A stretch of DNA of 63,805 nucleotides, counting the filler, from Reclinomonas americana ATCC 50394 (taxonomy: Eukaryota), in the NCBI GenBank assembly GCA_048213135.1. It is 14 parts of 14 records of this genome, joined end to end, with 100 filler letters (N's around TTAATTAATTAA, not from the genome) between each part and the next. Parts side by side here need not be neighbours in the genome. Positions count along the whole stretch, not along the records: positions 1 to 7,593 come from AFZH01019168.1; positions 7,694 to 9,865 come from AFZH01019172.1; positions 9,966 to 11,636 come from AFZH01019174.1; positions 11,737 to 19,578 come from AFZH01019175.1; positions 19,679 to 26,785 come from AFZH01019176.1; positions 26,886 to 36,126 come from AFZH01019181.1; positions 36,227 to 39,264 come from AFZH01019183.1; positions 39,365 to 42,191 come from AFZH01019185.1; 6 more parts are not named here. One strand, written 5' to 3'. The position numbers and the translations under genes were made by a program. The notes under the pieces are model-generated. The model was not told the DNA's origin and ran no database searches. It was given only the letters and a program-made list of their open reading frames with translations. The first letter of the stretch is position 1, and each line of letters starts with the position of its first letter. Positions 6,967-63,760 of the stretch are shown here, piece after piece.

Positions 6967-7523
6967 ATGAGTGGGGGCGAGAGCCCGCTGCTTCAGCCAG
7001 CGCTGCTGGTATGAGACGCACACCGCACACCCTTCCCGCCCACAGACTCCTCCTCTCATCTGTCCACTGCAGATTGACACTCCGCAATATGCTTTGTGCT
7101 CCGGCATGATCACCAACACCAAGGATCGCGCCTTTCGTCTGCGCGCGGCCCTCGTCTTCACCGCCGCCTCTGTTGCGCCACCTTCTTTTTTTGCGAGAGG
7201 AAGAGCGATGTCTGCGCGTGTCATTCTCATCATCATTTCACGCAGGTCATTCTCGGTCTTCTCCTCGTGTTGTCTTCGGCGTCGCGATGGTGGCGCATCT
7301 TTGACTGGCCGCTGCTTGTCTCTGCGTTTACGTTCTTCTTTACACGCGCTACGTTGCGTCTGCACAGACGAGAGAGAGAGAGCGTGTTTACATGTTGTTC
7401 TCACTCTCCGGAGACAGCGGCACCTGAGGTATGATCCTCAACGGGAAGTGGGACCCCGATGGACAGGGGAAACGCCCAATTCCCGCTGAGCATGCGGCGT
7501 TTGGTGCGCGGGTCAAGTCCAAG
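6967..7523 (+). CDS. Small two-TM membrane protein with in-frame TGA (candidate selenoprotein); 3' end lost in gap
   Basis: Exons 6967-7008, 7073-7171, 7246-7352 and 7418-7523 are joined by GT-AG introns of 64-74 nt. Translation: MSGGESPLLQPALLIDTPQYALCSGMITNTKDRAFRLRAALVFTAASVILGLLLVLSSASRWWRIFDWPLLVSAFTFFFTRATGT-[TGA 7425-7427]-GMILNGKWDPDGQGKRPIPAEHAAFGARVKSK, followed by a strong GTGAG donor. Confidence 0.65.
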
Positions 7524-7593
7524 GTGAGGATCGATTGCCATGCGCAGCTTTCATTCTCTCGTGCCTGCCTTCGCTGTCTCTCGCTGTGCGCTC

Positions 7594-7693
7594 NNNNNNN
7601 NNNNNNNNNNNNNNNNNNNNNNNNNNNNNNNNNNNNNTTAATTAATTAANNNNNNNNNNNNNNNNNNNNNNNNNNNNNNNNNNNNNNNNNNNN
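7594..7693. other. Artificial scaffold gap spacer N44-TTAATTAATTAA-N44 (also at ~9866, 11637, 19579, 26786, 36127, 39265, 42192, 43778, 48361, 55449, 57344, 60899)
   Basis: Identical 100-bp blocks carrying a six-frame stop linker. Genes such as the ARM, Clu and PSP1 genes continue across them, so the contigs are ordered. True gap lengths are unknown. Confidence 0.97.
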
Positions 7694-7950
7694 ACCTCGT
7701 CACCTCGTCACCTCGTCACCTCGTCACCTCGTCACCTCGTCACCTCGTCACCTCGTCACCTCGTCACCTCGTCACCTCGTCACCTCGTCACCTCGTCACC
7801 TCGTCACCTCGTCACCTCGTCACCTCGTCACCTCGTCACCTCGTCACCTCGTCACCTCGTCACCTCGTCACCCTCGTCACCCTCGTCACTTCGTCACCTC
7901 GTCACTTCGTCACTTCGTCACCTCGTCACCTCGTCACCTCGTCACCTCGC
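7694..7950 (+). repeat. (CCTCGTCA)n 8-bp tandem repeat, intronic
   Basis: About 30 near-perfect copies abut the gap and decay into the pyrimidine tract before the acceptor at 8034. Confidence 0.95.
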
Positions 7951-8034
7951 CTCCTTTGTCACCTCGCCTCCTTTGTCACCTCACTTCACCTCTTTGTCCT
8001 CTCCTTCTCCCTCCCTCTTCTGTGCATCTCACAG

Positions 8035-9565
8035 GGCATCGACACCGAGTACGTGAACGCGGCCGGCAGCAAGAACTTTTTGCGCGATTCGCGAGTCCTG
8101 TGCCGCGTACTCGCCTCGCAGCGGTTCTGCGGACAAAAGGTGCAAGTGCTGGAGGCCCTGATCAGCAAGTACGTTCGCAACAAGGACCCGAACGACTTTA
8201 TGAGCGTTTTGCGTCTGGAGCGCAGTTGCGTCATCGTTAAGTCTCCGATCGCATGGTTATGCGTTCTCATATGTGGTTAATCGCAGCTCGCGGTGACGAC
8301 GACTCACTGCCGGCCGAGTTGGCTCCTGCCGCCGTGCGTGGCTTCATGCAGTCAAGGTACGATAATTATCGCCATGTCGCCGCCCTAGCTTCCGCTCACC
8401 GTCTCGTATTGCGCACAGTTCGGGCGGCTCGCGGTCCGTGACGCGCATCGACAACCCGCTGCGCCGCGTCCGCATGCTTTTCGATCCCACGGTGCCGGTC
8501 GGTGATTTGGTGCTGAGCAATGCTCGCGACGAGGCCGAGTCGGCAGGTTTGTCTCCCCCTTCTCGCTTTTTCTTCTCCATTCCATCTCCTCACATCATTC
8601 CAGGCTGGGAGACATACGAATCAATCGAGCGCATGTTCCCGCTGCTGCTCAACACGATTGTGAAGCTGCCGCAATCCATGGTGTTGTACGGCGTCAAGTA
8701 CGCCGCGCTGCTCTCCGCGTCGGGTGCGTTCCTCGGCACCGTTGAGTCCCTTCCTTCTTCGGGACACTCACTCCATCATAGAGGCCAATTGTGTCAAGCT
8801 CGTGGAGCACGGCGGCATTCGCGTGGCGTTCTCGCTCATCAACGCCTTCCACAACGATCCGGAGATTATGGAGTTGGCGCACATGTTGATTCGCAACATG
8901 GCGGCGGCGGTGGACTGTGTGTCGCAGCTGGTGGCAGTGGATGCGTTGGACAGTGTGCTGGCGTCGCTGCGGCGTCATCCGAATAATGGGTTGGTGCATG
9001 AGTGCATGTACCGGGTGATGGCGAGGCTTGCGACAGGTGTGCGAGAGGGGAAGGGGGTAGAGGGGAAGGGTAGAGGGGGAAGGGTAGAGGGGGGAGGGGG
9101 AGGAGAGGGAGAAGGAGAGGGAGAAGGAGAGGGAGAAGGAGAGGGAGAAGGAGAGAAAGAGGGGAGCGGAGAAAGGAAAGAGGAGATGCTTTGTCTTGTT
9201 GTCCCTCTGTCTTTTCTGTCTTTCTCTCTGTTCTCTTTCTGCTCTTTCTTTCACTCTTTCTTTCCTGCCTTCTTTTCTTACTTCTTTCTTCCCTTACTTC
9301 CGTGTTTCTTTTTCTTTTCTTCCTCCTATTCTTTCTTTCTTTCTGTCTGTCTGTCTCTCTCTCTTTCTCTCACTTTGTCGGTCTGTCTGTGTGTCTGTGT
9401 GTCTGTGTGTTTGTCTGTCTGTGTGTTTGTCTGTCTGTGTGTCCGTCTTTGTGTGTGTGTGTGTGTTGTGTTTGTGTGTGTGTGTCTCTCTCTCTCTGTC
9501 CTGGGTTTCTGTGATTCTTTCTTTCTGTCTGTGTTAATCTCTGTCTGTTTGTTTCTTTCATTTGT

Positions 9566-9714: not shown

Positions 9715-12700
9715 GTTTATCTCTCTGTTTTTTTTCTGTTTGTTCTTTCCATTTGTTCTTTCTGTCTGTCCTTTCTGTTGTTTCTGTAGTTCTGTCTGTT
9801 TGTTCTTTATATCTTTCTTTTTTCTGTCTGTCTGTCTGCCTGTCTGTCTGTCTCTCTCTCTCTCTNNNNNNNNNNNNNNNNNNNNNNNNNNNNNNNNNNN
9901 NNNNNNNNNTTAATTAATTAANNNNNNNNNNNNNNNNNNNNNNNNNNNNNNNNNNNNNNNNNNNNGTCTTCGTCTCTCGTCTCTCGTCTCTTCGTTTCTC
10001 TCTCGTCTCTCGCTCTTCGTTTCTCTCTCGCTCTCGCTCTTTGTTTCTCTCTCGCTCTCGCTCTTGTTTCTCTCTCGCTCTCGCTCTTTGTTTCTCTCTC
10101 GCTCTCGCTCTTGTTTCTCTCTCGCTCTCGCTCTCTATTTCTCTCTCGCTCTCGCTCTCTGTTTCTCTCTCGCTCTCGCTCTTGTTTCTCTCTCGCTCTC
10201 GCTCTCTGTTTCTCGCTCTCTGTTTCTCACAATCTCTCGTGACACTTTGTTTCATCGTGTGGGTTTCATGTCTTCATTGGTCGCTCCCATGTTGACCTTC
10301 CCTCTCCACTCGCCTCGCAGACCGCGGCCTCGCGGAGGAGATGGTCAATCGCGGCTGCGTTGCGGTGCTGTCACGCGGATCGCTCGTCTTCACAGAGAAC
10401 GTCGACGCGGTGCGCACTGCCACCCTCGCGCTGTCGGTGCTGTCCAAGTACGGTTCGTTCGACTCGCAGATCCAAGTATTCTTGCCACCTGTCGTGTCTC
10501 TCACTTGCTTGCAGAGGAGTACCGCATGACGCTGGTGCGCGAAAAGGTGCTGCAGGCGTTGGTGGCCAACATGCAGGCGCACCCGGTGGATCGCGAGCTC
10601 ACGCTGTCGGCCTGCGAGCTGCTGCACCATTTGAGTATCACGGAGAAGACGCGCATCTATGTCACCAAGGAGGGTCGCATTGAGGCGCTGGTGGCGAGTT
10701 TGTATCACTGGCCGAACAGCATGCCGATTGCCTCGACGTGCTTGCACACGTTCCTCAATATTTGCACGGATGGTGAGAGAAGGGGTCAAAGGGGGAAGGG
10801 GGAAGGAGGGGGATGGGAGGGGGAGGGAGGGGGAGAAGGAGGAAAGGGGGGAAAGGGAAGATTGTGAATCGACGTGTGTATGCTTGCGTGCGTGTGGGTG
10901 TGAGCTTGTGCGTGCGGCGTGTTTGTTTGTCTGTGTCTGTGCCTTGTGTGTGTGTGTGTGTGAGTTTGTGGATGTAGTTGTGACGATACTTTTGTGTTCA
11001 AGTCATTTCTGCGTTGCATGTGTGTGCGAGTTTTGCGTGCCTGTCTGTTGAGCTGATGGTTTTTATCTGTTCCATGTCATTTCTGCGTCTTTGTCGTGCC
11101 TGTTGTTGAGGTTACGGTTCTGATCTGTTAATCCTCATTTCTGCGTCGCGCGCACGCGCGTGTGTGCGTGAGCTTATCTTTCGTGTGTATCTGTTGAGCT
11201 GACGGTTTTTATCTGTTCAACGTCCTTCCGTTGTCTGTGCTTGTGTGTGTTGTGTGAGCATGTGAGCTTGAGCTTGTCTGTTGAGCTCACCGTTCTCTGT
11301 TCAAAGTCATTCCGTCGTCTGTGCTTGTGTGTGTTTGTCTGTGTCATGCATATCTGTTCAGCCGACGGGGTTTATCTGTCCAGTTCGTTCATGCATCTGA
11401 GCTTGTGTGTGCTTGTTTGTGAGCTTGTGCGTGTGCGTATCTTAGATGTTCAATGGCATGTCTGCGTTTGTGGTTGTCAGCACGTGTGTTATCCTTATCT
11501 GTTTTGCTGACGGTGTCTCTGTTCAAAATCATTCCTGCATCGTGTCATGCGTAGCTGATGAGTTGATGGTATTCTATTGCCATGTCCTTGTTTTGTTGCT
11601 CTCTCTCTCTCTCTCTCTCTTCCCTCTCTCTTCCCCNNNNNNNNNNNNNNNNNNNNNNNNNNNNNNNNNNNNNNNNNNNNTTAATTAATTAANNNNNNNN
11701 NNNNNNNNNNNNNNNNNNNNNNNNNNNNNNNNNNNNTATCGAGCACATTTCGAATGCCATGAACCGCTTCTGCAACGATCGCAACTTTGTGTTTGCCGGC
11801 ATCCAGCTGCTTCTGCGCTTGGTGCTGACGAGCCAAGGAGGTTGGCTTCGCACACACTTCTTCCTATGCTAATGATATGAGTGACTCAGCACTGTGCGTG
11901 TGTGATGGCGCAGATACGACGCTGGTGGACATTGCTCGCTCGGGTGGCATCGAGCCGGCCGTCGTGTCGCTGGTGCAGTACATTGATGATCGGGAGTTGG
12001 TGGTGTTGGACATGGATCTGATCGAGCGGCTGTCAGCTGATCGTGAGTGGAAAAGGGGAAAGAAGGAAGAGGGGGCTATGAAAGGCACTCACTTCCCTCT
12101 CACTTCACAGCCGACAACCGCAACTTTGTGGCCCGCGCCGGTGGCGTGGAGGGCGTCGTCAAGGTCCTCATCCAGTACCGCAACGACCCCTCGCTTGTGC
12201 GCATGTGCATCTCGTCGCTGGCGAACCTGTCGGTGCTGACGTCGGAGAGCCGCGACCGCATCGCCAAGACTGGTGGTATCGAGGCGATTGTGGAGACGGC
12301 CGCCGACTATGCCGACGATCTGGAGGTGGCGCGCATGGCACATCGCGCGTTGTGGCCGCTGGCGGGTCACAGTTGCGTTTTGTTTTTGATTGTGTGAGCG
12401 TGTCCCTGTTTGCTGACATAAAAAAAATTGTAGCCGAGCGCGATGACCACATCACCAAGGCTGGTGGTGTGGCGGCGTCGATTGAGGCGCTGCGACTGTT
12501 CCCGGAGGATTCGGAGTTGGTGAGCTCAGCCAACCGCATGTTGTGGAATATGACCAAGAATGGTACGGCGTATTAGGGAAGGGGGGTGAAGGGGGAAGGG
12601 GGAGAAGAGGAAAGGGGAGAGGAGGAAAGGGGGAAGGGGGTGACAGGGGGACGGAAGAGGAAAGGTTGAGGGGGAACTGCGTATACGAGTGGATGGGTGA

Positions 12701-13778: not shown

Positions 13779-25908
<12,130 letters not shown>

Positions 25909-26504
25909 CTGCAAAGAGGGAAAGGGTGGTGGGTGGGAGAGGTGGGATAGGGAAGTGGGTGGGAAGGAAGAAGACAGAGAGAAGATGGAGAGGAGGAAGG
26001 GGGACAGAAAGTGGAATGAGAAAGGAGACGGGGAGCGCGTGTGAGCGAGGAAGGGAGTGGGAGGGAGAAGAAAGATAAAGTGTGGGACGGAGAAGTGACA
26101 GGGAGAGAAAAAGGAGAAGGATATAAGTGAGAGAGACGGTGTAGGTAGACAGCAATTAAGAATCAGATGGAGACAGAACACGGGATGGAGAAAAGAGACA
26201 GGAGGCGACAACGAGAAGGGAGAGAGGCAATGGGAAGCGGGAGGGGTGCAAGGAGGGAGAGGGGATACAAAGAGACACGAAGGCGAGGAGACAGGGAGGT
26301 GAGACGGAGACAGTGAAGGGAGTGGGTAGGAGAAATGAGACCAGGAGTGGGAAGGACGAGGGAGACAGGGAATGGATAGAAGAGCGGGCATATGGAGTGA
26401 GAAGGAAATGAGACAGGGAGAATGGAAGGATTGGAGACTTGGAGATGGGAAGGAGAAGGAAGAAAGAGGGCGATAAAGCATAGGAAGACAATCTCGCTAC
26501 TCCA

Positions 26505-31017: not shown

Positions 31018-31059
<42 letters not shown>

Positions 31060-31174: not shown

Positions 31175-31244
<70 letters not shown>

Positions 31245-43181: not shown

Positions 43182-44384
43182 AGGCCGCCAGCCACCATCT
43201 CCATCTTCTCCTATCTTCGTTATCCCCCCTGTTTTTTGTTAATCGATTTGGTGCCGGGCTGCTCTCGTCGTCGCCCGCCGTGTCGGATAGTACACGAGCA
43301 CGCGAGAGGGAGAGAGCAGCGATCAAAGTCGACCGTGTTATGCGACGAGGACAGCACATGTGTGAAAAATGAAATTGGGCCCCACCTTGTGTAAACCGTA
43401 CATGGCAACAAGAAGAACACAAGCGAACAAGTGCTGTATCCCGCTTTTCTCACCTCTCTCTCCACACTGCCCTTCGTTTCCTCACCACGCTTATGCCGCG
43501 CACACACGCGAAAGGCCAGTTGAACCGTTGCCACGCGAAAGCACACGAAAAGCACGAAGAGGAATGTGCGGCACACATTTCATGCTCGCGACCGTTGATT
43601 GTCTGTGTGTAGTGCGCGTGTGACAAGAGCAGGCACACACAATGGCCGGCTCCTCGACCAAACCCATGGGTGGCTCCGTGGTCGAGTGGCTGGTACGCAC
43701 GTAGTCTTCTCTCTCTGTGCGTGCGTGTCTCTCTCTTTCTTTCTCACGCGTGCGCGACAGGACAAGGCACTTGATCCNNNNNNNNNNNNNNNNNNNNNNN
43801 NNNNNNNNNNNNNNNNNNNNNTTAATTAATTAANNNNNNNNNNNNNNNNNNNNNNNNNNNNNNNNNNNNNNNNNNNNCGCTGCACACCGTCTTCACTGTG
43901 CTGATGACACCACTGTTTCATCCAGGTGCTCTTTGTGCGCTTCTTGAACGGAAGCCACTTGTTTGCCGTGTTGCGCGATATGGGTCTCGCATGTGTGCCG
44001 CTGCTGGTGCCGGAGGAGCAGCGCGCCGACTTTGAGGCCGAGTTCGCTCACAGTTGCGTGCTGTGCTCATCATGGATGGCTGGCACGTAACTAATAGCAC
44101 GTGTGGCACGCACAGCTCCAGCGCCGTCGGAGATCATGCCCCGAGTGGAGGAGAGCGGAAGCGAACGAGAGCAGTATCCCTTCCGACGGAGTCGCCGAGA
44201 CAAACCCTCGGCAACTCACGAGTCGCCGTTTGTGTTTTGACCGCGGCGGCGACAGACTCTTGATATAATGAAGCACGAAGAGATGCAGTTGATGATGCGG
44301 GGCGAGGGAGAATCACCCACCGTCTGTCCGCTACTCACATCTCTCCGCCGATGTCATTGTCGGTCGACATTGCCAGACGCTTCA

Positions 44385-46265
44385 TTATGTCTCCTGTGGT
44401 CTCCGCTCGTTGGGACGCATAGGAATTGTGCTCGTGGTCTGCCCAGGTACGGGCGACATCATTATTGGTGGCAGCAGTGGTGGCGCCACCGCGCTCTGCA
44501 CCATCGACGGCGACATGCCCATCAACGCCAACGGACTGGCGTTGATTCGTGGTTGCTGTTGCTGCTGCTGCTGCTGCTGCGGGATGTAGTGTTGCGGCTG
44601 GTGAAGCTGCTGTTGTTGTTGTAGTGGTTGTTGTTGCAAAGCGGACAGTGTGTAGGCGGTGCTCTGCAATTGTGGATGGGTGTGATACAGCTGCTGCGAG
44701 ACACCGTAGACGGAGCCGAGGTGTGCCGGCGTGGCTTGCATCGCGCGCATATTCGGGAGTTGGTGCATTGAGTCGCAGTACTGTTGCTGTTGCAGCTGCT
44801 GCAGTTGTTGTTGCTGCTGCTGCTGTTGATGCTGTTGCTGCCACAGCCCATACATGGGTGGCGACATCATTGAAGTCGCTGTGGTGGTGGTGGTGGTGGT
44901 TGACGAGGAGGCTGACGACGTGGGGGAGGTCGTTTGTGAGAGTAGCGACGCGCTGCTCAGACTGCTGCTGCCGCCGCCGCTGTTGATGTCCACCATCGAT
45001 CGCAAGTGTGCCAGCGTCTGCGGCGATGCCTGCGGTGTGTGCTGCGTGGAGTTCAGCGACTGCAGCAGCACCGCATGCGACGCCGGCGAGGCAATGGAAG
45101 TCGCACTCGGCAAGTGGCGCTTGACCGCCGTCGACGGCGGCGGCGACGACGGGATGAACGACGCCGAATTCGCTCGCAGTGCCGCGGCCACGGCGGCACC
45201 CACACCGATACTTGGAGCCGCCGGTGCCGCTGCCGACGCGCCCATTGACATCCTCCTTTCCTCAGCACGAGAGGTCGGCGGGGACGGGCCGTGTGACCGT
45301 GAGGGCGGTGAATCCTTGCTGCCCCTGGCCGCCTTCTGCAAACGCATTGCAATGGCATGCAATTTAGGCCGGATTGGCTTGCAAATACAGCAGCAGAAGC
45401 GCGCGCGCAACTCGATGCTTCTGCAAGTGCGACTTGACCTGCAGCAGCGTCACACCCCACTGTTGCAGCGTGCCAGCATTGAGACTCTCCATCGTGTTCT
45501 GCACCGGTCAGAGAACACACGCACGTGTGCAAAAGAATGGTCGTACATGCCAAACCAAGTGAGGCAGAGAATATAACAGATGTACAACACAGGCGACGGG
45601 GTAGTACGCAACAAGAATGGACTTGGGGGCAATCACTGATGACATGAGAGAGGCCACACAGAGAGAAAGAGTCAATGCTACTGTTGTGCGCAATACACCT
45701 CCACCTCACTCCTCTCACCGAGACCACGCTCCTGCAGCACATTGACTGCCGCATCAAACAAATCACTGAGTTCTCCTTGCCAGCGAACTCCCCACTTCTG
45801 CTTCTCCTTGGATGCCGACTTGCCACTGCATGTGAGACGTCATCACCACATGCGAATCCAACTGGGGGGAGGAGGGAATATACAGAAGAAAGAAAGAAAG
45901 AATAGGGCCACTCACCGCCGCCGCTTCACGCTCATCGACCCCTGCGCCTGCGTGGCACACAAGCAAGTCAATCTCACACAAACGCGCACAGAGAGGGGGA
46001 GGGCCAACCGCAAGATGCCAAAAAGGCGCACCCTCAAAGGTGCGCATATTACCACTCTCTCTGTCTCTGTCTCTCGCAACGTGCATGTTGGGGGGCGTGT
46101 AGAGAATCCACCACTCACCGCATGCTCCTCTCCATCTGCATCCCCTCCCGCGTCCATTGCACTCACACAGGGCGCAGCAGAGGCGCCAGCAGACGCGTTG
46201 CGCGACATGGCAAGCGACGACAAGGCCGCAGCCGCCATTGCCGATAACCCAGGCGGTTCTGCCAT
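44385..46265 (-). CDS. GARP/G2-like (Myb SHAQKYF-class) transcription factor with S/P/Q-rich tail
   Basis: Spliced: KQKWGVRWQGELSDLFDAAVNVLQERGLVIAPKSILNTMESLNAGTLQQWGVTLLQVKSHLQKHR, then a low-complexity poly-Q tail. Confidence 0.85.
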
Positions 46266-46383: not shown

Positions 46384-47854
46384 ATGCGGAAAACTCGCGC
46401 GTCCGAAAACTTATCGTCCTTTTTTCCCGCCCGCGTCCGTTTTCTCTTCGATCGCACATGGAGAGACAAGAGTGTCTGCGCGTGGGCGATGTATGCGCCT
46501 CGGATCCGCTCGGACTCGAGCGGGAGTCAGTGCACGCAGTGTGCTTCCGACCGCGGCGTGTGGAGCGGACACGACATCGTCCGACACCGCTCGATGCCGA
46601 GGAAGAAGGGTGTGCATGCCAGTTGTCTTCCTCTTCTCACTGTCTCTGACACCTCCTCCTCTTGCGCAGTGATGGGTATGCACTTGCCGCGGTGTGCGAG
46701 AGCGGTCTGATCCGCCTGGGCGATGCGTCCACTGGTCGCGTGTCGAATGCCATGGACGCGGTGGTGATGACGGCTGGTGAGGGTGGTGCGTATGTTAGTG
46801 CTGCGGCGGTGGAGCAGCAGCGAGTGGAGCATGAGCAGCAGTGTGAGAGCGATCCGGGGGTGCCTCCATTGCGGCCGCTGGTGTGGTCGGTGGTGTGGAA
46901 TGCCGATGGGACGATTGGCACGGCCAAGTTGCGAGGAGGAGGAGTGCTGTGAGTGAGTGTATGTGTGCTCATTGATCAATGTGTGCATGCAGTACGCGTG
47001 ATAATCGTGTGTTTCTGTGGACGGATCCAATGTTGCGCGGTGTCGGTGTGCGGCTACTGGGAACGGTGACGGATGCGGCGGCGAGTGGCATTACGGCAAT
47101 GGAGGGCTCGCCCAGTGGAGAGTTCTTTGCGGTGTCGACGCCCGAGGGCCATGCGTCGGTTTGTCAATCGCATCGCATGCTGTCTGATGTGTGAGAGAGT
47201 GATGCAGACGCGCAGGTGTGGCGTGTGGGCGAGTGGACGCGACTGTCGTTGCCGGTGTACCACACGTTTGGACTGACGAGTGTGCGGTGGTCGCCCGACA
47301 GCTCCATGCTGCTGCTGACCTCGCACGATCGGCGCGCCACCATCTGGCGATTGGAACCAGAAGGCAATGAGCTGGTGCTGGCCGCGGTCATGACTGGCCA
47401 CCGCAGCTCGGTGACGTGCGGCCACTGGTCGTGTGATCAGGAGCACGTGGCCACGGGCGGCGAAGACGGTCAGATCCTCATCTGGTCGAGTGCCACGGGC
47501 GATTGCGTGCAAGAGGTCGCGTCGTCGTCGTCGTCAAGCCGAGCCTTCCCGTGTCGCTGCATCAGCTTCCACCCGCTCTATCCGGGCATGCTGGTGGCGG
47601 GGCTCGCCAGTGGCGGTGGTGTGCTGCTGTGGGCGGCCGACGAGTGCGCCGCGCTCGACGAGCAGCTGAAAAAGTCGGCAGTGACTGGTCTCGCGTGGCG
47701 CCCCGACGGCGCCGCACTGGCCGTCTCCTGCTCCAATGGCACCGTGGTGGTGTACGTCGACACGGCGGCTGTGTTGCACTTGCAGCAGCCACTCCACTCA
47801 CCACCGTCGAGACCACCGACGTTGAAAAAGAACCCCGCTGCCGACCTTCAGTGA
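46384..47854 (+). CDS. WD40-repeat protein (start uncertain)
   Basis: HTFGLTSVRWSPD...SHDRRATIW, GHRSSVTCGHWS...ATGGEDGQILIW, SAVTGLAWRPDG...SNGTVVVY. Confidence 0.9.
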
Positions 47855-48513
47855 AACAAGAGCTGTCCTTTTCGTCGTCCTCGCGTGTTGTTGATTGAAA
47901 GAGAGCGAGGGGAATGCGTCTGGCCAGTGCAGTGGGCCCACTGGTGTTCACCGGCCTCGTGGGTCTCCTCTGGCTCTTCTCAGGCGACGCCGATGCACGC
48001 GCACCACGTTGCGTCGCATGTGCATTCTCATCTCTCTATTTCGCACGCACTCTCTGACACTGTGCGCTCTCATGCACACACAGCACGTGGCGCAGCAGGA
48101 GCGGGAGCAGGTGCAGCAGGCGGCCCTGCACCCTCAGCCTCCTTCCTCTCCGCACTGCAGGACTTTGTGAGTGGCGCCGGTGCCTTGTCCGCGCTGGGCT
48201 TCCCCGAGGCCGACGCGCGAGACTCCTCCGTGCAGTTCGAGCTCATCTCTCAAGTGCAGTGTGTGACCACAGTGGGGCGACCTGTGTCGGCATCTGTGAG
48301 GAACCAGCCGGCCGCCGATCAGAGGCGACTGGGCATATGAGTGAAGAAGAATGCGTGTTTNNNNNNNNNNNNNNNNNNNNNNNNNNNNNNNNNNNNNNNN
48401 NNNNTTAATTAATTAANNNNNNNNNNNNNNNNNNNNNNNNNNNNNNNNNNNNNNNNNNNNGTGAGTGTGAGTGAGTGTGAGTGCGTCAGTTGCCTCCACG
48501 CGTGTGACGCGCA

Positions 48514-48913: not shown

Positions 48914-51607
<2,694 letters not shown>

Positions 51608-52054
51608 TGTGTGTGTGTGAGAGAGAGTGTGTGTGCGAGTGAGCGAAGAAATTTCATTGTGGTGTTGCTCTCGCGCGCGCGACGTTGATTATCACACTTT
51701 CGTTGTCTCAGAGTGCGCGCCTGTGTGTGTGTGCGTCTTGTTGCTCTCTCTCGCACACAACTGGTGTGCGCGCGCGTGTGTCTCGTGGACATCTCCTTCG
51801 CGCACGCACTCCCAGACACAGTGAGCGCGCGCGTGTGAGAGAGAATGGGCATATGTCACTGTGGAACGCCCATTGACGATGACAGTTACGCGCGCTCTCG
51901 TCACACACAACACAGCACATATGTCTGATCATTACACACATACAACAATCACACAACAGTTGCTCGTCTGCTCTTTCGCTACTTCACCGAGGCGTATCAG
52001 AGTCGACTGAGCGAGCCCACTGTTACCTCCACTAGTAAGCCGACTGCAATTGCC

Positions 52055-55000
52055 ATGACTGCGGTGCAAGTGCAGAGCAAACCGCGCTCATTGTCGACTG
52101 GCACCGCGACGCCCATGCCAAGTCACCTTGCGGTGTCGTCGGCGAGTGGGATGGTCAAGGCGACAAGCAATGGGCCGTTGCCTGCAGGAGCGGGATCGTC
52201 GTCGTCGTCGTCTGCAGTGACAGAGGTCGCCAGTGAAATGGTGGAGCCTGTGCAGTTTGTGCAGCAGGTGCGTGCGCTCGATGCACCGCCGTTGGCGTCG
52301 GCGTCGGCGGTGAAGCAGGCGGTGCGCGAGGAGTTGCAGGCCAAGTCGCGGCGAGTGAGCAGTCAAGGTGCTGTCTCTTGTTGCATACACAGGGGGGAAT
52401 CGGACACTGAAGTCTATTCTGCAGTGGGCTTTGTGATGGATCTGAAGCAGAAGATGATTGGGAATGTGGCGGTGCGGGCCTTGTGCGATGCGGTGCAGGC
52501 GGTGGCGGCGGAGCACAAGTCGTTTCGAATTGGCTTCAACCTGCGTGGTAATGGAGTTGCGATTCAACGCGCATGTCTGCATCAGTGTGGGCGCGCTCGA
52601 GTTGTTCACCCGCTCTGTGTGTAGGTGGGTGATGCGGGTGTGCGCAGTCTGGGGGACTTGTTGAAGAAGCCCGTGGGTCTCTTCTACTTGGATCTGTCGA
52701 GTAATGAGTTTGTTGCGTGGGATTCGCTTTGGAACTCTCGCTCTGCAGTCCGAATATTTGACTCGTGAGGCGTTGCAGACGGATCAAGGCCTCAAGTCTC
52801 TCAGCATGTCATTACGCAGCAACGAATCTCTCCGTGTCTTGCTGCTGTCCAAGATGGAGGTGCGTGTGTGTGTATGCGTGTCTGTTTGTTTGTTTGCACT
52901 TGTCATGACACGCGACCCAATGCTTACTTCCTGTCTGTTTTTCCCAAAATAAGACGTGTGGTCAGGGACTGGAACTGCTGCTGGCCGCCTTGGCCTCCAA
53001 CAAGTTCTTGCGGAAACTCGACATCTCAGGTGCACCTCTCGACCTGCAGGCGGTGACGTGGATTGCAAATGTTTCGTCCACGCGATTGTGGTCCGCATCC
53101 ATCCATTGTGCGCTCTCTGTGTGCTCATCCGACACCGCCGCAGATGCTCGAGAGCAACCGAGCACTCCGTGAGCTCGACATTAGTCGCATCATGTTGGCC
53201 GAGAATGCTCTCGACGTCCTCGTGCAGTCCATCGAGCGCAACTTGTATCTCACGTGTCTGCGCATTGATCGGTGTGCCCATCTCCCTCCCTCCTTCGCTT
53301 GCGCTTTCTGTGTCTCACGCTCACCATTCTTTTTGGACGGCAGGTCCTGCCTCAACACGCGCATCTCACAGTCGCTCGAGCAGACGATCGAGCGCAACCT
53401 GACTGTGTACGAGACGATTGAGCAAATGGTGGAGAAGGTGTTTGCTCGTCGGCGATCGGGAATCGGACAGCAGTCGTCACGAGGTCGAGTCGTCTCTGCG
53501 TTGGAGGTGTGTGTTTTTGGATGTGCCTCTTTTTTCGCTCTTCTGTCGTCTTCTAATCGCTTGTCGCGGCAGTTCTTCGACAAGGCCGTCATGAAAACAG
53601 GCCTCATGCCAGAGCAGTTTGAGAATCGCTTCTTCAAAGTGGGTCACGCGGAGACCATTGGACGGAGACCGACCATGGAGGATGCGGCCTCGATCCAGGT
53701 ACGCGCCATGGTGCCACACGTCACGCAATGCACGCTTGCTTACTTTTTCGGTTGTGCAGCTGTTCTTCCGCGACCGAGAAGACGAGGCGTACTTTGGTGT
53801 GTTTGACGGACACGGTGGCGCCGCGGCGTCCGAGTTTGCCGGAAAGTACTTGCACGACTTGATTGCACAACGATTGGACAGCGGCGAATACGAGGGCAAC
53901 ATGGAGATGCTGCTCACCGACTGCTTCCTCGAAGTCAACGACATGATGAGCCAGCAAGCCATTCAGGATGGCACGACAGCGCTGGTGCGTCAGCCACACA
54001 TACACACACACGTATCTTGCTTTTTCCCGTGCGCTGATCACTCCTCGATTGCAGGTCACGTACGTGTCTGGCATGAGGTGTTGGCTGGCCAATGCCGGCG
54101 ACAGCCGTTCTGTGCTTGCTCGGTAAGTGTGTGCATCGCGCGTTGCCTTTCGTCTCCCGCATCTTGCCTCATTGCTCGTGCAGAAACGGCAATGCCATTC
54201 GGTTATCTGTCGACCACACGCCGGCCATTCCGGAGGAGGCGCGTCGCGTGGAGCGCATGGGAGGGTGAGGAACGTGCTGGATGGTGGTTCATGTGTGCTC
54301 GCGTGTATTCACTCTCGCCATGCAGATACGTGTCGCTCGATCGTCGCGTAAACGGCGTGCTGAGCGTGTCTCGTGCCCTCGGTGACTTTTTCCTGCATCC
54401 ACTAGTGACGCCAGAGCCGTTCCTCAATTCTTTTGACATCACGGAGGGTGCGTTGCGGTGGGGGCTCTCGTGGTTGCGTTGTTGCGCTCACACTCGTGGC
54501 GTGCGACGCAGACGATCAATTTATAATCATGGCCTGCGATGGACTGTGGGATATCCTCACCGACGAGCAGGCCGTACAGCTGGTTCGTGGTTCTCGCTCC
54601 GTTTCCCAATGTGCTGCTGCTGACGTTTTCTTCGTGCTCGTGGCAGGTCATTCAAGAGGATCTCATGGACGACCCGCCGCGTGCGGCCTCCATGTTGCGC
54701 GATTTTGCGTACCGACACGGTGAGACTGTGGTGGTGGCGGTGTGGCGCTGCCTTTTTCCCCACTGCCTCTCATTTTTTTGTGTGTCACAGGGTCCACCGA
54801 CAACATCTCGGTGGTCATTATTCGTTTCTTGCACTGGTGCGACGATAACATCGATCACCGCACGCGACTGCTGAGTGTCACCGCCCCCGATATGCCGGAG
54901 CCTGAGCCACCACCACCTGTCTCGACGCCGAGCCGCGCCGCCTCTGCGGCCGCGCATCGCAATGGTCGTCAGCACCACCAGTCACGATCACCGCCGCCAC

Positions 55001-55164
55001 CACCCCCCATGCCGATGATGGAGTTGATACCACCAAACACGGCTGTGGGGGCGGACTTTACGCCGGAGACCCCGGGTTCTCCGAGCACTGCCAGTGGGAT
55101 GCGCACCGAAACCGTCTCGCTGCTGGAACAGGAGGCCGCCGAGTTGCCACCTGTCGAATCTTAA
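52055..55164 (+). CDS. RNI-like leucine-rich repeat plus PP2C (PPM) phosphatase
   Basis: LRRs: FNLRGNGVGDAG, LDLSSNEFTDQG, LRELDISRIML. PP2C motifs: GRRPTMEDA, FGVFDGHGG, DGTTA, ANAGDSR, RVNGVLSVSRALGD, IMACDGLWD, GSTDNISVVII. Confidence 0.93.
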
Positions 55165-56654: not shown

Positions 56655-59600
56655 ATGTCGACGTCGACAGCGTCGTGCCGTTTGCATCTTCATCGCAAAG
56701 CACAAGGACGCTCTTGCCGACACTCATACACTAACAATTGCTGCGTTTACCGAGCTGCAACGACGGATCTTTGCCAGAGCAATCGACGTCGACAAATGCA
56801 AATCCGACTCCCTTCCAGCGCACGTGCAACACAAAGCTCGTTGCAGACAGACGATCGGCAGCCGCAACAGCACCGCACCACCTTCATTGCACTGTTGCCA
56901 GCGACGTTTGTCCCGGATTTCACCTCGAGTCGTCGATCATGCCACCCGCGAGAGGGGACGACGAGGCATCGACCGGCGCACGGCCACGGCGACGTGTACG
57001 CGCTCTGCTGCAACACGTGTTCCCTCGCGTCCTGGCCGTGGCGCAAGCAGGTGCGTGAACGGATCGATCGATCTCTCTCATTGTTGCTGCTGAGTCGTCT
57101 GCGCGCAGCCTCCTCGTCGACAGAGGTGCAGCGACGTGGTCGTGCAGAGACAGAGATCGAGGCGGCTCCGCGTGAGCTGGACGGTCCATCGGCCTCGTGG
57201 TTGTCCAAGATCGTGCGCTCGTTGCAAGGATCGTCCAAGTTGTCGGCCGATTCGTTGCAGGTGAGTGTGCAGCTGGGCAAGGGTGTCTTCTGGTCGCTTG
57301 GCTGACATGCACGCCATCAGGCCTTCAACAACATTCTGTTTCTNNNNNNNNNNNNNNNNNNNNNNNNNNNNNNNNNNNNNNNNNNNNTTAATTAATTAAN
57401 NNNNNNNNNNNNNNNNNNNNNNNNNNNNNNNNNNNNNNNNNNNGCTGGTTGCAAGCTTGTCTCTGCCGTGGTGTCGTGTCTCATTGTGTGTGTGTGTGCA
57501 GTCGGTGGTCGTGCAGTTGCTGGGAGTGTGCTCGTATGTGCCGGGCGAGGGTTTCGTGCTCCACCAGGGACTGGCTCGTGCACTCCTGCAGTGGCGTCGT
57601 CTCGGCGGTGATATTGCGGTGGACCGGCGTCTGGTGGTGTTCACGTACACGGATGCGGCGGTGGCGGCGCACGTGCTGGCGGCCGATCCCGACGCCGGTG
57701 ACCTGTTGTCCACGTTTGCGGTGGTGCGACAGCAGATTGCGCGGTCGCTGGAGCGGCTGGCGGCGGAGACCGAGATGGAGGTGCACTATTGTTGCTGTCA
57801 GACCACCGACGCGCAAGCGATGCAGGAGCCGTCGGTGTGCGCCCAGTTTTTTTCGTCGGGGGTCGGCATGGTGGCCTTCCTGCAGCGTCGCCTCTTCCTC
57901 TCCCTCGACAACTTGGTCTTTGTGTACGGCGACTCCACGCCGTCGGATCGGTGGCGCGACATTGGCCTGCGCTGGCTCGTGTCCGCCGCCAATTTTCTCG
58001 ACTTTGGCGCGCAGCCCAACATCAAGTCCTTGTTGCGTTATAATTACACGCCTCTCTCAACACTCTTTCCTCCCTCACGAGGTGTTGTTGAGGTGGCAGG
58101 TCCAACATTCGCGAGGACCATGTTCGCTCGCGCATGCCATTCCTCACCAATGTGCAACCGCTCTCCGAGGAGGAACTGGAGCGCCTGTCGAGTGACGATT
58201 GTGTGCGACTGCGCGACCCCTACGTCACCCACCTGCTTCCCGTGCAACAACTCGTGCCCCTGACGGCATTGGTCGACAACGGCAGTGGCGATTTGCAGCT
58301 CTTCGAGGAGCAAGCGTGGGGCGGTCGCTTCCACGGACTGGTGGTGCCGGAGAGCATGGCCGACCGCCTGCTGGAATCGAGCCTGCATTCGTCCATTTTT
58401 GTGGTGAGCGGCGCCAAGGGCAGTGCCAGTCTGAGCAGCACCAGCAGCAACAGTAACAGCAACAGTGGCCGAATCGGCAGTGTTCGTGGCTCACTGGAGA
58501 GCACCGGTAGCAGCAGCAGCAGCAGCAGCAGCATGCTGGACCGCAATCTGCGCCTGCTCAGCTCGGGCGCCGCCGTACCGACTCCACCACTGGCCTCCTC
58601 CTCGAATGGCTCGTCATCGCTTTCCTTTTCGTCGTTTCCCATTTTCGGGGCGCCGGCACCTGTCGAGTCACGCAATGCTGCTGCACGGGCACCGCCACCG
58701 CCCGTGCCACCCATTGGTTCGACGACGTATCTACACACGCGTGTTGAGTTTTTTTTTGCTGACACGCACCACATCACACAGACATGTCGTGGGTGCGCGC
58801 CACGTGGACCGAGGACTACACCACCAGCGTGTGCAAGGAGCACGAAGTCAGCAAGGCACAGCTGTTGAGTAACCTTTGTGTATGTGTAATATATCTTGGT
58901 GTTTGACCATGTGGCAGATTGGTGCGAGCCAACCGTGTGCGCTTTCTGGGCATCCGGCGGGAGGGCGACAGTGACAGCCGCATCACGGTGGTCGCGGCTT
59001 GCGAGGGCTCCGAAGCCAACGTCTTTTATCAGCTCGTCGTTGCGCTCCTGCCTCCTGCCCTTTATTTTTGTTCTCTCTCTCCAGTGCTGCTGATGCTTTC
59101 GCTGGCTGCAGCTGCGCTTTGCGGTGACGGGCCAGTATGGCGATTGGACGTGTACGTGCCCCGACTTTACACAGCGGGGCCACAAGCTCGCGTACCCCAT
59201 GTGCAAGCACCTGACTGCCGCCATCATGACCATGCGCGAGGCCGATCCGGCGACTCTGGCACGATTCTCCACGGCACAGTCGCCGAAAGGTGTGTGTCAA
59301 AGAGAAAGAGAGAGGGTGCAGGCCGCGATCTGGAGACTGACCGCGAGACACAGATCTCTTTAGCGCCTTTGACGCGCAGATTGCAGCCGCCAAGAAGTCG
59401 GTCGGTATCAATTCACATTGCGATTGCTGGTATTGCTGCTGATTGTGTAAGTCGTCCTCGCAGGCCGCAGCACCATTGTCGATGGTGCCGCCTGTACAGC
59501 AGGCACAACAGCCGGCGCTGTGGTCGTCTCGTGCGCCGAATGTCACGCGAACCGCCACACTGCCTCCCTTGTCGACGATGCCAGCGCCTGCGGCCGCAAC

Positions 59601-60897
59601 AGCCGCCCCAGTGGGCCGGTTGGTGACTACAACTGGCGCCGATACAGCCACTGCTGCCGCTGGCCGAGGTGGTGGACGGCACTTGCCGGCCTTCTTGTTG
59701 GCGTTGCGTTGTGTGTTTGTTTACAGAAAGAGCGGTGTGTTCTGACGCGAGTACGTTTTCTGTCGACCAGTGCACCCGGCGGCCGTAAAAAGTCCTCGTC
59801 TCGCACGACAAGCACAACGACCACCGCGGCCGCCGGTGATGCAGCGCCCGACGGCGGAGAGGGTCGGCGTGGAAGACGCGAGAAGGAAAATGAGTTGTGT
59901 GGGCGGTCCTTTCCTATGATGCGCCGATGGTCTCCTCACTCACTGCCCCCCCAACCAGCCAACTGAGTCGTCTCGTCAGTGAGTTGCTCGGTGGTCAGGC
60001 CCACGACAGATCTCGCCTGCATCGCGAAAAGGACATGTACGATGTGGCTCGCATGACGCTCATGGAGGTCGGTGCAGCTCGTTCCGCGATACGCTTCCAC
60101 TGGCTGCTGATGTGAATGTCGCCTCGCAGCGTTTTCACGTCCCCGAGGCCGACATCCCCGCCTACTCGGCCTTTGGCGACTCACGCACTCCCAACGGTTC
60201 GCCGCCGCCACCAGCGCCAGCGCCACGGCCCGTGGCACCACCTGTTCGGCGGCGACCACGTGCCGAACCACCATCAAAACGTTCATGCCAGCGGTCCGTC
60301 TCGCCGGAACCCGCTGCTGCTGCTGGCACCTCTTCATCTTCGCCGTCGCCACCACCACCCCGGCCACCACCACCACCACCACGGCAAGCACCGCCCCAGG
60401 TATTTGTGTGCGCTGGTGACTGTCAATTCGCACTCTTGCTGAACCGTGCACGACAGGCGAGTTACATGCAGAAGATGCTGCAGATGATCGCGGCAGCCGA
60501 CACCGACGTGGAGCTCGAGACAGCAGCCGCAGGAGAGCCAACTGCGGCGGCGGCATCCATACACCGGTGCGTATCTCGGCACACAAAAAAACAAGCCACT
60601 CTCGGAACTCATTGCTTTTTCATTTTCACCCTCCACAGCACCGGCAGCGCTGCGAGTGGGAGCGCAACACCACTGCTGTTTACACTGGAGCCGACACTCG
60701 CGTCTCGTGGTGAGCTCCCGTGCATGTCACACTCTGACTGCGCAATAATCATCTCAACCACGCGCGTCTGCAGTATCGCGGTCCAACACGCAAGCCTCCT
60801 CGGCACGCGTACGCCGCAAACGCGGCAACAGTGTGTCTCCAGCCTCCTCCTCGTCCTCCTCCTCGTCTTCCTCTTCCTCCTCCTCCTCGTCGTCATC
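56655..60897 (+). CDS. Protein with a degenerate HAD-IIIA-like domain and a SWIM zinc finger; partial
   Basis: SWIM: WTCTCPDFTQRGHKLAYPMCKHLTAA (~59140-59225) preceded by ACEGSEANVFY. The upstream exon RRLVVFT...VHYCCC...GMVAFLQRRLFLSLDNLVFVYGDS..SD resembles the GmhB/PNK-phosphatase layout. Confidence 0.7.
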
Positions 60898-60998
60898 ANN
60901 NNNNNNNNNNNNNNNNNNNNNNNNNNNNNNNNNNNNNNNNNNTTAATTAATTAANNNNNNNNNNNNNNNNNNNNNNNNNNNNNNNNNNNNNNNNNNNN

Positions 60999-63760
60999 AT
61001 CCTTCGTCTTCTGGATCTTGGCGCCACCACGCTTGTTTGCGCTTGTTGGCCAAGTACTCTTGTCGCTGCGTCTCCAGTGCGTCCTCATCGCCGCCCTCTT
61101 GTAATGACCACTTGAGCATCGGCGGGGCCTGGCGTGTGCGTTGGTCGTTTCCCGCGCGTGTTATGTGTCAACTCTTTTTTGTCCCGAATTCATTCACTGC
61201 TTTTTTCCGATCGCGACGTCGAACCGCGTTGTTGCCAGTACTGCAGGCCGCGTGAGAAGAGATCGGATTGCGGCGGCGGAGCGGACACGCGATCGAGATC
61301 GGTGTAGGTTGACGAGTCGATGGGCGGACCACCACCACCACCTCGACTGCTGCCGCGACTGCCGCGCGGACGGCCGCGTGGTCGGCCACGGGCACGACCG
61401 CTGCCTCCTCTAGCACCTGTGCCGGCTTCCATTGCCTGCTGTGGTGGTGGTGGTGGAGCATAGCTCCAGTCTGCATCGCCGCGACCGCGACCACGACCAC
61501 GACCACGACCGCGGCCACGCCCTCGTCCTCGCCCACCGCGACCACGCCTTGCATCGCCGTATCCACTGCCGTACTCGTCCTCGTCGCCGTCGACCGAGTC
61601 TGCCGCCCACTGACTGACCTCCTTTCGTGGCGGGAACGTGTACGGTATCCGCTGGGCGGCGTCGGGGCCACCCCATTCTGCCGGCACGTAATCGAGCAGG
61701 TCGCTGCGCAGCGAACCGAGAGCAGTGTACTGTTCGCTGAGCGCCGGCACCGCGTCGTCCTCGCTGGCGGCGAGCACTTCGAAATCCGGCGCATTCGCCA
61801 CATGCCGCACCAGCAGCGCATTGCCAATGTCGGTGCGCTGACTGATGTTGGCGTTGTGGAGCACTCGTTGGAGATACTTGAACTGCTGCGCAAACCTGCA
61901 TCGCGAGAGTGAGAAGGGGCAGGCAAAAAAACGTAAGCAGCAACGCAACGTGTCATCCGCCACGGCGGGTGGCTCGCTCAATGTCTGCGTGCGCACAATG
62001 GTGCCGTCGACTGGATCCACGTGCACTGTGGTTGGCGTGGAACGTGAGCAAGCAACTTGCGCATCGTGCATGCTCTCCTGGCGACACACGCACACACCGA
62101 TAAAGAGTCGCGAATGGGGTCTCAGCTGGAAATGCAGCCACCAGCGGAAGCGCTCCTCGAACGACACTTGCTCATCCAGTGGCCGACAGTACTCCACTTT
62201 GACATCGACATGCACTGGCATAACAGACTGCGCGTGTTGTTTTTCGAGTGAGGGGAAGTTAAAATAAAACAGCCCGTACACACACTCACACACACACACA
62301 CACACACACCTCGCCCGTCTTGTCGTGACAAAGGACTTTGTCGCGCACAATCAGCCGATGTTCGCCAAACTCGAGCAAACAGTACGACACGCCACATTCG
62401 ATTGCCGCAGGCTCCTCTTCCCCGGCGTGCGCCCGCACGACCTCGTCTATCGACACTCGCGCCACATCACCATCTCCCGAGGCTTGCGATCGAGCAGCCT
62501 CGAAGTCGACAGCGTCCTCGCCGGTCACACAACAACAGCGCCTTACTACGTGCCGAAACAAAAGTTCGTGACGCTCGCGACCAGTCATTCCACGCGGCAA
62601 CCAGGCCGACTCGAACACCAGCAGTCGTTTGCCTGCACCGCGCAAGAGTAAGCGTCCTGCACTTCACCGACTGCATACCCCATTCTCTGCATCGCTACCT
62701 CCATCACCGGGAAGCACATGCAACGGCGTGCACCACTCGTGTCGCATGGCTGAGGGACCCGGATTGCACATGACAGCATGCAGGGCCGACGACGTGAACA
62801 TGGCAGTGGCGCGATGGGTGGCCGCCAAGTGCAAGGCATGCGGATCGGAGTGCAACGGCACCAACGACTTCCACTGCACGCAACAGTCATGAGCTCCGAA
62901 ACATCGTAGTGCAAGCAGTGCCAACAACACACGCACTCTTTGCAGCACCGTGTCAGGCGAAGCGGAAAACAACGAAAACAGCTTGAGTGGCGCAAACGGC
63001 CGAGTTCTTCCCTGCGCGTAGACGACGGTGAGATTGCCGATCATTGACTCGCACGGAGACCGTTCATATCACGTCACGCAACCGCAGTGGCCATATGGTG
63101 ATGACCAAAGTGATGGGGATCGGCCTCCGATGGGAGCGCGTTGCGCACGACCCAGCGATCGACGACCACTCGGCGTCCGAGCCACTCACTGTGCTGCAGC
63201 TTGGCTTGCTTGCGTGAAACAATCGCCTGCATGCAACAGCAGCAGTGAGACGCAGCGCAGTGCAGAGCCAGGCCGTCGACCTCACGATCACCTGCAACAT
63301 CGGCACAATCTCGTCGGCCATGTGCAGGTACACGTCGCGGTTCTCCTCCTCCGCAACACGCTGCTGCTCCAGCATGTACAAGTGTCGTTCCGCAGCGAGT
63401 TGCTGCCGCGCCACTCTTATCCAGTGCCGTTCCTCGGGCGACAACTGCGACCCCGCACACGAAATCAGCACTGTGACACACGCGCAGTTCGCGGTACACG
63501 CATACACACGCACCCCTTGACCCTGCGACTCCTTCCGTTCCAACGCCATGAACACCTGGTGATCCGCCGCGGTGAACGCCGACACGGGTGGCTCGAGTCC
63601 GCGTCGAGGCAGCGGCTGCTGCGGCAGTGGAGGAAGCGACTGCGCAGGTGCTGCAGGTGATGGTGTCGGTGTCGATGCTGGAGCAGCCGCGGTGGCGGCA
63701 CTCTGCCGCCCTTCGTCGTCGTCCGGCTGCTCATCGTCACCATCCGCGACTGCCGACACG
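60999..63760 (-). CDS. ICE2/NARG2-like protein (NARG2_C-type domain) with RG-rich tail; both ends incomplete
   Basis: PLHSDPHALHLA...TSSAL...EWCTPLHV...LPRGMTGRERHELLF, VSYCLLEFGEHRLIVR, VKVEY...EQVSFEERFRWWLHFQLRPHSRL and RIPYTFPP follow the motif order I recall for ICE2. An RGRGRG tract lies at ~61480-61550. Confidence 0.65.

Follow-up and report, generated by a model that had tools for sequence, protein, structure and literature searches.

GTTGCG as a frequent 5′ splice site of predicted introns in Reclinomonas americana, and the register in which U1 may read it

How can a spliceosome use a 5′ splice site whose consensus seems to begin one base late? This question is raised by a stretch of the genome of Reclinomonas americana ATCC 50394 (assembly GCA_048213135.1) in which many predicted introns start with GTTGCG(T). 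In the textbook account U1 small nuclear RNA (snRNA) pairs through its 5′ end with the 5′ splice site, or donor, in one fixed register, and donors read in a shifted register are rare exceptions in humans; such human sites were reportedly described by Roca and Krainer in 2009. The window, by which we mean the whole 63,805 nucleotides (nt) analysed, consists of 14 contigs of 1.5-9 kb with artificial joins between them (N44-TTAATTAATTAA-N44 at 7594-7693 and 12 more gaps), so genes on either side of a spacer may not be neighbours in the genome. An initial annotation had proposed GTTGCG(T) as a heavily used, +1-shifted donor and had listed 19 such sites together with one GTTGAGT at 58864. All 20 motifs are present on the strands given for them, and the counts made on the 19 (T at +7 in 14, G at -1 in one) were reproduced. 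Intron shares given below refer to this one 64-kb window and to predicted gene models, and make no statement on genome-wide use.

GTTGCG as a donor of predicted introns

The motif is in excess in the window. GTTGCG occurs at 80 sites against 51.99 +/- 7.06 in dinucleotide-preserving shuffles, and GTTGCGT at 29 against 12.77 +/- 3.58, numbers that none of 100 shuffles reached in either case. GTTGAG shows no such compositional excess (51 sites against 56.94 +/- 7.45). Intron status was judged by tests that were blind to the donor. Firstly, every GT on both strands was examined for a branch motif CT[CG]A[CT] and the first AG, required 45-140 nt downstream. GTTGCG was the top GT-hexamer, carrying this module at 46/79 sites compared with 2182/7242 (30%) in the background (p = 2e-7), and for GTTGCGT the figure was 22/29. 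Neither GTGCGT (25/103) nor GTGAGT (24/84) stood out, because these motifs are diluted by GT-rich non-coding sequence.

Secondly, we ran a dynamic-programming gene finder that required GT and AG, gave a bonus for branch and acceptor, and took no account of the donor beyond GT; its codon scores had been learned from 1033 codons, taken from stretches with Pfam hits and from the exons of an AMPK gene. Counted in models of at least 240 nt, 101 introns were returned, with GTTGCG as the commonest donor hexamer (15/101), followed by GTGAGT (6) and GTGCGT (5). The same procedure on reversed contigs gave 13 introns, none of which began with GTTGCG. Self-training of a donor table brought the share of GTTGCG to 27/160, beside 16/160 for GTGCGT and 11/160 for GTGAGT, and after removal of overlapping models GTTGCG headed 21/114 introns. 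With self-training the control rose to 98 introns, and these counts are therefore softer. Moreover, the donor-blind models misplaced the junctions at 7353, 12372 (in first passes), 15796, 50418 and 58032.

Thirdly, a strict local test demanded at least 15 open codons on each side, a positive coding score, a branch motif and a blocked read-through. It was passed by 14/78 GTTGCG sites compared with 219/8072 of all GT sites (p = 2e-8), and by 15/315 GTGCG and 15/314 GTGAG sites among the ordinary donors. For other motifs the numbers were 6/93 (GTTCG), 4/90 (GTACG), 4/125 (GTATG) and 1/51 (GTTGAG). At the 75 distinct acceptors of this test, a GTTG[CA]G donor candidate was found at 15, a GTG[AC]G candidate at 27 and both at 3. 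All candidates are GT-AG introns, and 29 of the 33 whose phase is known either change the frame (24) or are in frame with a stop (5), the other 4 being in frame and stop-free.

The union of gene finder and strict test contains 17 of the 20 sites in the initial list, and an eighteenth, at 50418, is placed by homology; those at 7353 and 45411 were called by neither test. Beyond the list the union found 14 candidate sites, about five of them being doubtful, since a model with a better score lies on the opposite strand.

Protein homology fixes some of the junctions directly. The 5′ half of a gene for an AMPK/SnRK1 alpha kinase lies at 49913..51607 (-) with 9 exons and 8 introns, and is recognised by Pfam Pkinase hits on three exon open reading frames (ORFs) and by collinearity with homologues. 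A word-index protein search with AMPK exon sequence gave 120 matches, the best full-length ones at 75%. Joined at GT-AG borders, the nine exons yield a 340-residue protein. Its alignment with the homologous proteins P0043 and P0007 spans about 290 residues at 75% identity, and none of the 8 junctions falls at a gap. GTTGCG heads three of these introns (donors at 51393, 50512 and 50418). The ordinary introns of the same gene, also on the minus strand, are 51044-51105 (GTGCGCG), 50825-50898 (GTGCGTT), 50654-50732 (GTGAGTA), 50191-50259 (GTGCGCC) and 50025-50084 (GTGAGTG). Intron 1 (51197..51393, -; GTTGCGT, 197 nt, phase 1) was called by gene finder and strict test, and its junction reads GKVK-L-AEH with the conserved L found in homologues. 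Intron 5 (50454..50512, -; GTTGCGG, 59 nt) was called by the gene finder, and the alignment is gap-free at its junction. Intron 6 (50344..50418, -; GTTGCGT, 75 nt) was missed by the gene finder, which picked 50442; it is placed by homology only, the junction restoring a 13-residue stretch that is the same in homologues, with a conserved C, and its read-through contains an in-frame stop. The statement that protein conservation fixes the three AMPK junctions is thus borne out by gap-free collinearity.

At the 50512 junction the codon specifies N where homologues have K or Q. This Asn (50513-50515 / 50453, -) falls in an ISG(K/R/Q)LYAGPE motif that is otherwise invariant in eight aligned homologues. 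A shift of one base at both ends of the intron would restore the conserved K but needs TT..GT ends, and if made at 51393 as well it would put W in place of the conserved L; we rejected this shifted-splice idea.

A further junction comes from a second gene. The intron at 20552..20605 (-; GTTGCGT, 54 nt), called by the gene finder, is in frame and stop-free, and therefore reading frames alone could not have identified it. When a 109-residue stretch was used in a full HMMER scan, 3 matches came back: P0127, a repetitive chance match, and the short P0128 and P0129, which are usable. Against the unspliced translation P0129 aligns with an 18-residue gap lying exactly over 20552-20605, and against the spliced form it aligns gap-free (score 147 vs 119 unspliced). 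By alignment, then, gap-free collinearity with homologues fixes four predicted GTTGCG junctions, three in the AMPK gene and one in this second gene.

We considered whether the class could be an artefact, either of wrong gene models or of a T wrongly duplicated by the assembly at ordinary GTGCG donors. The assembly is fragmentary, and our gene models are home-made and noisy. Yet four junctions are fixed by homology, and the reversed-sequence control contained no GTTGCG intron. Moreover, a doubled T would keep the preference of ordinary donors for G at -1 and would strike GTGAG as often as GTGCG, and neither is seen in the comparisons below. An artefact is therefore, in our judgement, scarcely credible.

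Taken together, these tests confirm that the predicted GT-AG introns in the window make real and frequent use of GTTGCG(T) as their 5′ splice site. In our gene models it starts about 15-25% of introns. The description of a major donor class holds within the window, whether judged from the donor-blind models, from the overlap-resolved ones, from the acceptors of the strict test or from the AMPK gene.

Length, branch site and 3′ end of the introns

For comparison between classes we used the union of gene-finder and strict-test introns, with 30 GTTGCG, 29 GTGCG and 29 GTGAG donors. Median lengths are 68.5, 75 and 83 nt, respectively. In all three classes a CTSAY branch motif lies at a median of 18-21 nt from the 3′ end, and among GTTGCG introns it is present in 27/30 at a median of 18 nt. 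C or T occupies position -3 of the 3′ end in 29/30 GTTGCG, 28/29 GTGCG and 27/29 GTGAG introns, and intron phases are evenly spread. Since lengths, branch and 3′ ends are alike across the classes, the GTTGCG introns are predicted to be of the ordinary major-spliceosome type (U2-type GT-AG introns), differing from the others only in the donor. Pairing between the intron ends (UUGCG with CGCAG) was also considered as a feature of the class, and was discarded because YGCAG 3′ ends, which roughly half of the introns have, are equally common in the three classes.

These data bear on the idea of a separate intron type, be it a class resembling that of the minor spliceosome or mobile 'introner' copies. 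A rigid 7-nt donor with no exon consensus does resemble U12-type donors. U12-type introns are marked by an RTATCCTT donor and a TCCTTAAC-like branch site. Here the donor is GTTGCGT, no RTATCCTT donor is present, and ordinary introns share the CTSAY branches, their distances, the YGCAG ends and the lengths, which rules against a U12-type class. All-against-all blastn of 31 introns found no common sequence apart from the first 10-11 bases and short words that match by chance, and this absence of similarity along the introns rules out mobile copies. A separate type is thus very improbable.

Register of U1 pairing and the preference for C

The exon context of the class also differs from that of ordinary donors. 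G precedes 2/30 GTTGCG donors compared with 33/58 GTG[AC]G donors (Fisher p = 2.4e-6), the -1 base of the former being A in 12, T in 10, C in 6 and G in 2. Within the intron, positions +3 to +7 (TGCGT) match the ordinary consensus at +2 to +6 (T-G-[C/A]-G-T), and T at +7 in 19/30 GTTGCG donors mirrors T at +6 in 30/58 ordinary ones. The '+1-shifted' reading of the initial annotation is supported indirectly by the absent -1 G preference and by this mirrored T. As judged from these predicted introns, the exon context is compatible with a shift of one base and is not proof of it.

An alternative that keeps the normal register is that the exon and GU pair as usual, the extra U at +2/+3 is bulged, and pairing resumes with GCGU. 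Removal of one T from GTTGCGT does give the ordinary GTGCGT, and human sites provide established cases of bulged registers (PMC4856993). However, with exon pairing retained, G at -1 should be at least as frequent as before ordinary donors, which it is not. When the exon profile of ordinary donors was laid on the GTTGCG exons, the unslid register demanded by a bulge fitted 15.3 bits worse than the profile slid by one base. Moreover, a bulge leaves the disuse of GTTGAG without explanation. We regard this alternative as improbable.

The avoidance of GTTGAG is pronounced. In the strict test GTTGCG and GTTGAG stand at 14:1, compared with 15:15 for GTGCG and GTGAG (p = 0.007), and in the union set at 30:1 compared with 29:29 (p = 3e-6). 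We computed nearest-neighbour duplex energies with the standard U1 5′ end, AUACUUACCUG as printed in PMC4856993, and with a U1 that has G opposite the C. For standard U1 they are -12.2 kcal/mol (GUGAGU), -7.8 (GUGCGU), -5.5 (shifted GUUGAGU) and -1.1 (shifted GUUGCGU); for the G variant they are -13.7 (GUGCGU), -9.0 (GUGAGU), -7.0 (shifted GUUGCGU) and -2.3 (shifted GUUGAGU). Standard U1 ranks shifted GUUGAGU over GUUGCGU, which is the wrong order with respect to usage, whereas the order given by the G variant matches it. The class is almost exclusively GUUGCG, not GUUGAG, and therefore we infer that the 5′ end of U1, or of one U1 copy, pairs with C. The initial annotation took these donors to imply altered U1/U6 recognition or variant snRNAs, at which this choice of GTTGCG over GTTGAG hints indirectly.

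The value of just -1.1 kcal/mol for the shifted duplex with standard U1 could instead mean that recognition is mostly independent of U1, the heptamer being read by a protein or later by U6 or U5 and its likeness to a shifted GUGCGU being coincidental. The exon context, which carries no information, would agree with this. But near-identity to the ordinary nine-base site would then go unexplained, and by our own reasoning from the pairing scheme, GUUGCGU pairs with the ACAGA box of U6 no better than GUGCGU does. In addition, we know of no candidate protein factor for reading the GUUGCGU heptamer. To this possibility we give little weight.

A different way to account for the preference for C is a second, dedicated U1 copy with the 5′ end ACGCAAC (in place of ACUUACC), fully complementary to GUUGCGU, while the standard copy serves GUGAGU and GUGCGU. 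Its duplex with GUUGCGU would be worth -13.3 kcal/mol. The class has invariant positions +1 to +6 besides its frequent T at +7, which makes it tighter than the ordinary class, and it shows no exon preference; there is precedent in Physarum, where standard and modified U1 copies are reported to be mixed (bioRxiv 10.1101/2022.06.08.495308). Such a copy would require three bases to be substituted, however, in an RNA segment that is among the most conserved known, and the single change to G at one position already accounts for the order of usage. We consider a dedicated copy unlikely.

Overall, the best explanation, to which we assign a probability of roughly one half, is that genuine GTTGCG donors are recognised in a shifted register by a U1, or a U1 copy, that pairs with C. 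The site CA/GUUGCGU (the slash marks the exon-intron border) would present the nine bases of ordinary CAG/GUGCGU with a single difference, a U in the slot that the +1 G ordinarily fills. The G at +1 of the intron would sit in the slot where the exon G at -1 normally pairs with U1, and cleavage would fall one base upstream, at the sole GU available. The 5′ end of U1, or of one of its copies, would have G replacing the first pseudouridine (ACGUAC-like), as has been reported for Mastigamoeba balamuthi. Both the register and the snRNA change are thus what we infer from usage and duplex energies. A fuller version, in which two registers operate at once, U1 is changed (with G opposite C, or with a second copy complementary to GUUGCGU) and the shifted donor is a standard, selected start in about one fifth of introns genome-wide, we advance tentatively, with the odds rather against it.

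Several points weigh against shifted recognition by a changed U1. The slid exon profile fits just 0.4 bits better than background composition, and therefore the positive evidence for a shift comes almost wholly from the missing G at -1; moreover, G is uncommon before GTTGCG at non-intron sites too (13/98). The comparison sets, being derived from our own gene finder, are not free of false positives, and in four cases they contain two alternative donors for a single acceptor. The 30:1 ratio of GTTGCG to GTTGAG comes from a run with the self-trained donor table. Micromonas and Thecamonas, with GYGCGY donors, are reported to keep a standard U1, so that a change in U1 is not what one would expect by default. 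If the U1 helix is shifted, how U6 then positions the GU still needs an explanation. Finally, the evidence as a whole rests on 64 kb and on predicted gene models.

Work with suppressor U1s on single human sites has established shifted and bulged registers, a shifted example being ACA/GUCAAGUAU (Table 2 of PMC4856993). Like the human shifted sites described there, GTTGCG donors match the consensus one position late, and they would have G+1 in the slot of the exon -1 G and be cleaved at the GU. Unlike them, GTTGCG outnumbers every other single donor hexamer in the window, and it is fixed as GUUGCG(U) while the better partner of standard U1, GUUGAG, is avoided. With the human +2/+3 bulged registers the class shares one extra U between GU and a consensus-like GCGU; those registers keep exon pairing, whereas the -1 G preference is absent here.

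Archamoebae are a group in which snRNAs and splice signals are reported to have co-evolved, and Physarum offers a more complex case (bioRxiv 10.1101/2022.06.08.495308). According to the same source, Entamoeba has GUUUGU(U) donors with a U1 of ACAAAC, M. balamuthi prefers GUGCGC donors and has a U1 of ACGUAC, and Micromonas and Thecamonas have C at +4 (GYGCGY donors). As in the Archamoebae, where this is lineage-wide, donors here depart from the usual form in having U at +3 or C at +4, and the G opposite C in the U1 of M. balamuthi is the very change favoured by the duplex energies here. In contrast, the Archamoebae as described have one dominant donor in the normal register, whereas two registers would coexist in R. 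americana. Moreover, M. balamuthi has a GC content of 60.7% compared with about 53% here, and the introns here are shorter and denser. The donors of diplonemids, (G)/GTATG, are unlike those of this window.

Irimia and Roy reportedly described in 2008 GTGCG(T/C) donors in Mamiellales such as Ostreococcus and Micromonas. Like these algae, the window has GTGCG and GTGAG as ordinary donors and a CTSAC-like branch near the 3′ end. The accounts of Mamiellales, in the parts available, mention no GTTGCG class and report a standard U1; the window is also much more intron-rich, the AMPK coding sequence having 8 introns in 1 kb. A text search of the literature, outside which figure logos and supplements lie, found no genome described as having a register-shifted donor beside an ordinary one at similar frequency, and none of the papers listed for the exact motif dealt with splicing, as judged by title or abstract. 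If the fuller, two-register version is true, this would be the first genome in which register-shifted 5′ splice-site recognition is a rule and not an exception. A shifted donor as common as each ordinary one would amount to a natural experiment on cleavage-site choice independent of U1 pairing, on the handling of an extra base by U6, and on the co-evolution of core snRNAs with splice signals. In practical terms, gene finders trained on GTRAG-type donors would misplace about one fifth of junctions in this organism.

Further GTTG[CA]G introns and the content of the window

Several of the other predicted introns were called by gene finder and strict test alike. On the plus strand they are 8225..8286 (GTTGCGT, 62 nt; frameshift and stop in the read-through), 12372..12433 in an armadillo-repeat gene (GTTGCGT, 62 nt; CTGAC branch, frameshift and read-through stop), 46928..46992 in a WD40 gene (GTTGCGA, 65 nt), 52556..52624 in the LRR part of an LRR-PP2C gene (GTTGCGA, 69 nt; in frame with a stop), 58032..58099 (GTTGCGT, 68 nt) and 59039..59111 (GTTGCGC, 73 nt). 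So is 58864..58917 (+; GTTGAGT, 54 nt; in frame with a stop), the sole supported GTTGAG donor. Minus-strand introns called by both are 15867..16026 (GTTGCGT, 160 nt), 62874..63082 (GTTGCGT, 209 nt) and 49676..49742, a frame-changing intron in the C-terminal half of the AMPK gene (GTTGCGC, 67 nt). The intron at 15738..15796 (-; GTTGCGT, 59 nt) passed the strict test, the gene finder having picked a GT four bases upstream.

Calls by the gene finder include 15063..15130 (-; GTTGCGT, 68 nt) and 48008..48083 (+; GTTGCGT, 76 nt), both with a frameshift and a read-through stop, 45499..45612 (-; GTTGCGT, 114 nt; in frame with a read-through stop) and the frame-changing 18720..18780 (-; GTTGCGT, 61 nt). 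The donor at 18780 has G at -1, being one of the two such donors in the GTTGCG set and the sole one among the 19 in the initial list. The introns at 15063, 15867, 46928, 48008, 49676 and 62874 lie beyond that list. Called by the gene finder only were 7172..7245 (+; GTTGCGC, 74 nt) and 14011..14069 (-; GTTGCGT, 59 nt), both frame-changing, and 61896..61949 (-; GTTGCGT, 54 nt; CTCAC branch), which is in frame with no stop. The same holds for 14165..14227 (-; GTTGCGT, 63 nt), whose support is weaker because it is in frame without a stop. Two more in this group have uncertain 3′ ends: the GTTGCGC donor at 24104 (24018..24104, -), in frame with no stop, gives 87 nt in the model and possibly more, and the acceptor of the GTTGCGT donor at 52712 (52712..52965, +) is ambiguous (242 or 254 nt).

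As for the two listed sites that neither test called, the GTTGCGC candidate at 45336..45411 (-; 76 nt) is frame-compatible and ends in TTGCAG, and no CTSAY branch was found in it. At the GTTGCGT candidate 7353..7417 (+) the gene finder picked the GT at 7358, and no acceptor with 30 open codons on each side and a branch motif was found for the 7353 site.

The genes of the window are eukaryotic, with many short exons split by short introns, and GC content varies from about 48 to 60% along it. A Pfam scan of 150 ORFs recognised a HECT ligase, the AMPK/SnRK1 kinase, the LRR-PP2C phosphatase, a PSP1-domain gene, the WD40 gene, a second kinase and the armadillo-repeat gene. Word-index protein searches gave 5 weak matches for a WD40 exon and no matches for a 63-residue exon; neither these nor the AMPK search returned the protein itself or a named close relative. 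A metagenome scan yielded a single weak locus (40% identity over 49 residues), which was left aside. In the LRR-PP2C gene model, 51960-55164 (+), leucine-rich repeats are combined with a PP2C domain, for which two exon ORFs gave Pfam PP2C hits; where the model extends upstream of 51960 it runs over the AMPK gene on the opposite strand, and this 5′ end is therefore spurious.

Within the window no snRNA gene was found at gathering scores, nor any transfer RNA gene, and a permissive snRNA scan returned only chance matches of microRNA and small nucleolar RNA type, on a GA/CT hairpin at 9.1-9.3 kb. This GA-rich/CT-rich hairpin (9100-9290) matched several plant microRNA families and one small nucleolar RNA model far below gathering scores, and the matches are chance ones to a simple inverted repeat.

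Other repetitive sequence is also present. An 8-base unit, ACCTCGTC, forms a tandem array at 7694-7960 (+), directly after a contig spacer. Long low-complexity tracts with strong strand skew (GC skew reaching 0.49, AT skew +/-0.45) occupy 16000-36000; they contain stop-free 'ORFs' of 300-500 codons in several frames, which confound ORF reading, and are probably non-coding. Lastly, the predicted proteins at 44335-45245 (-) and 42305-43181 (+) contain long poly-Q, poly-A, poly-S/T and poly-H runs.

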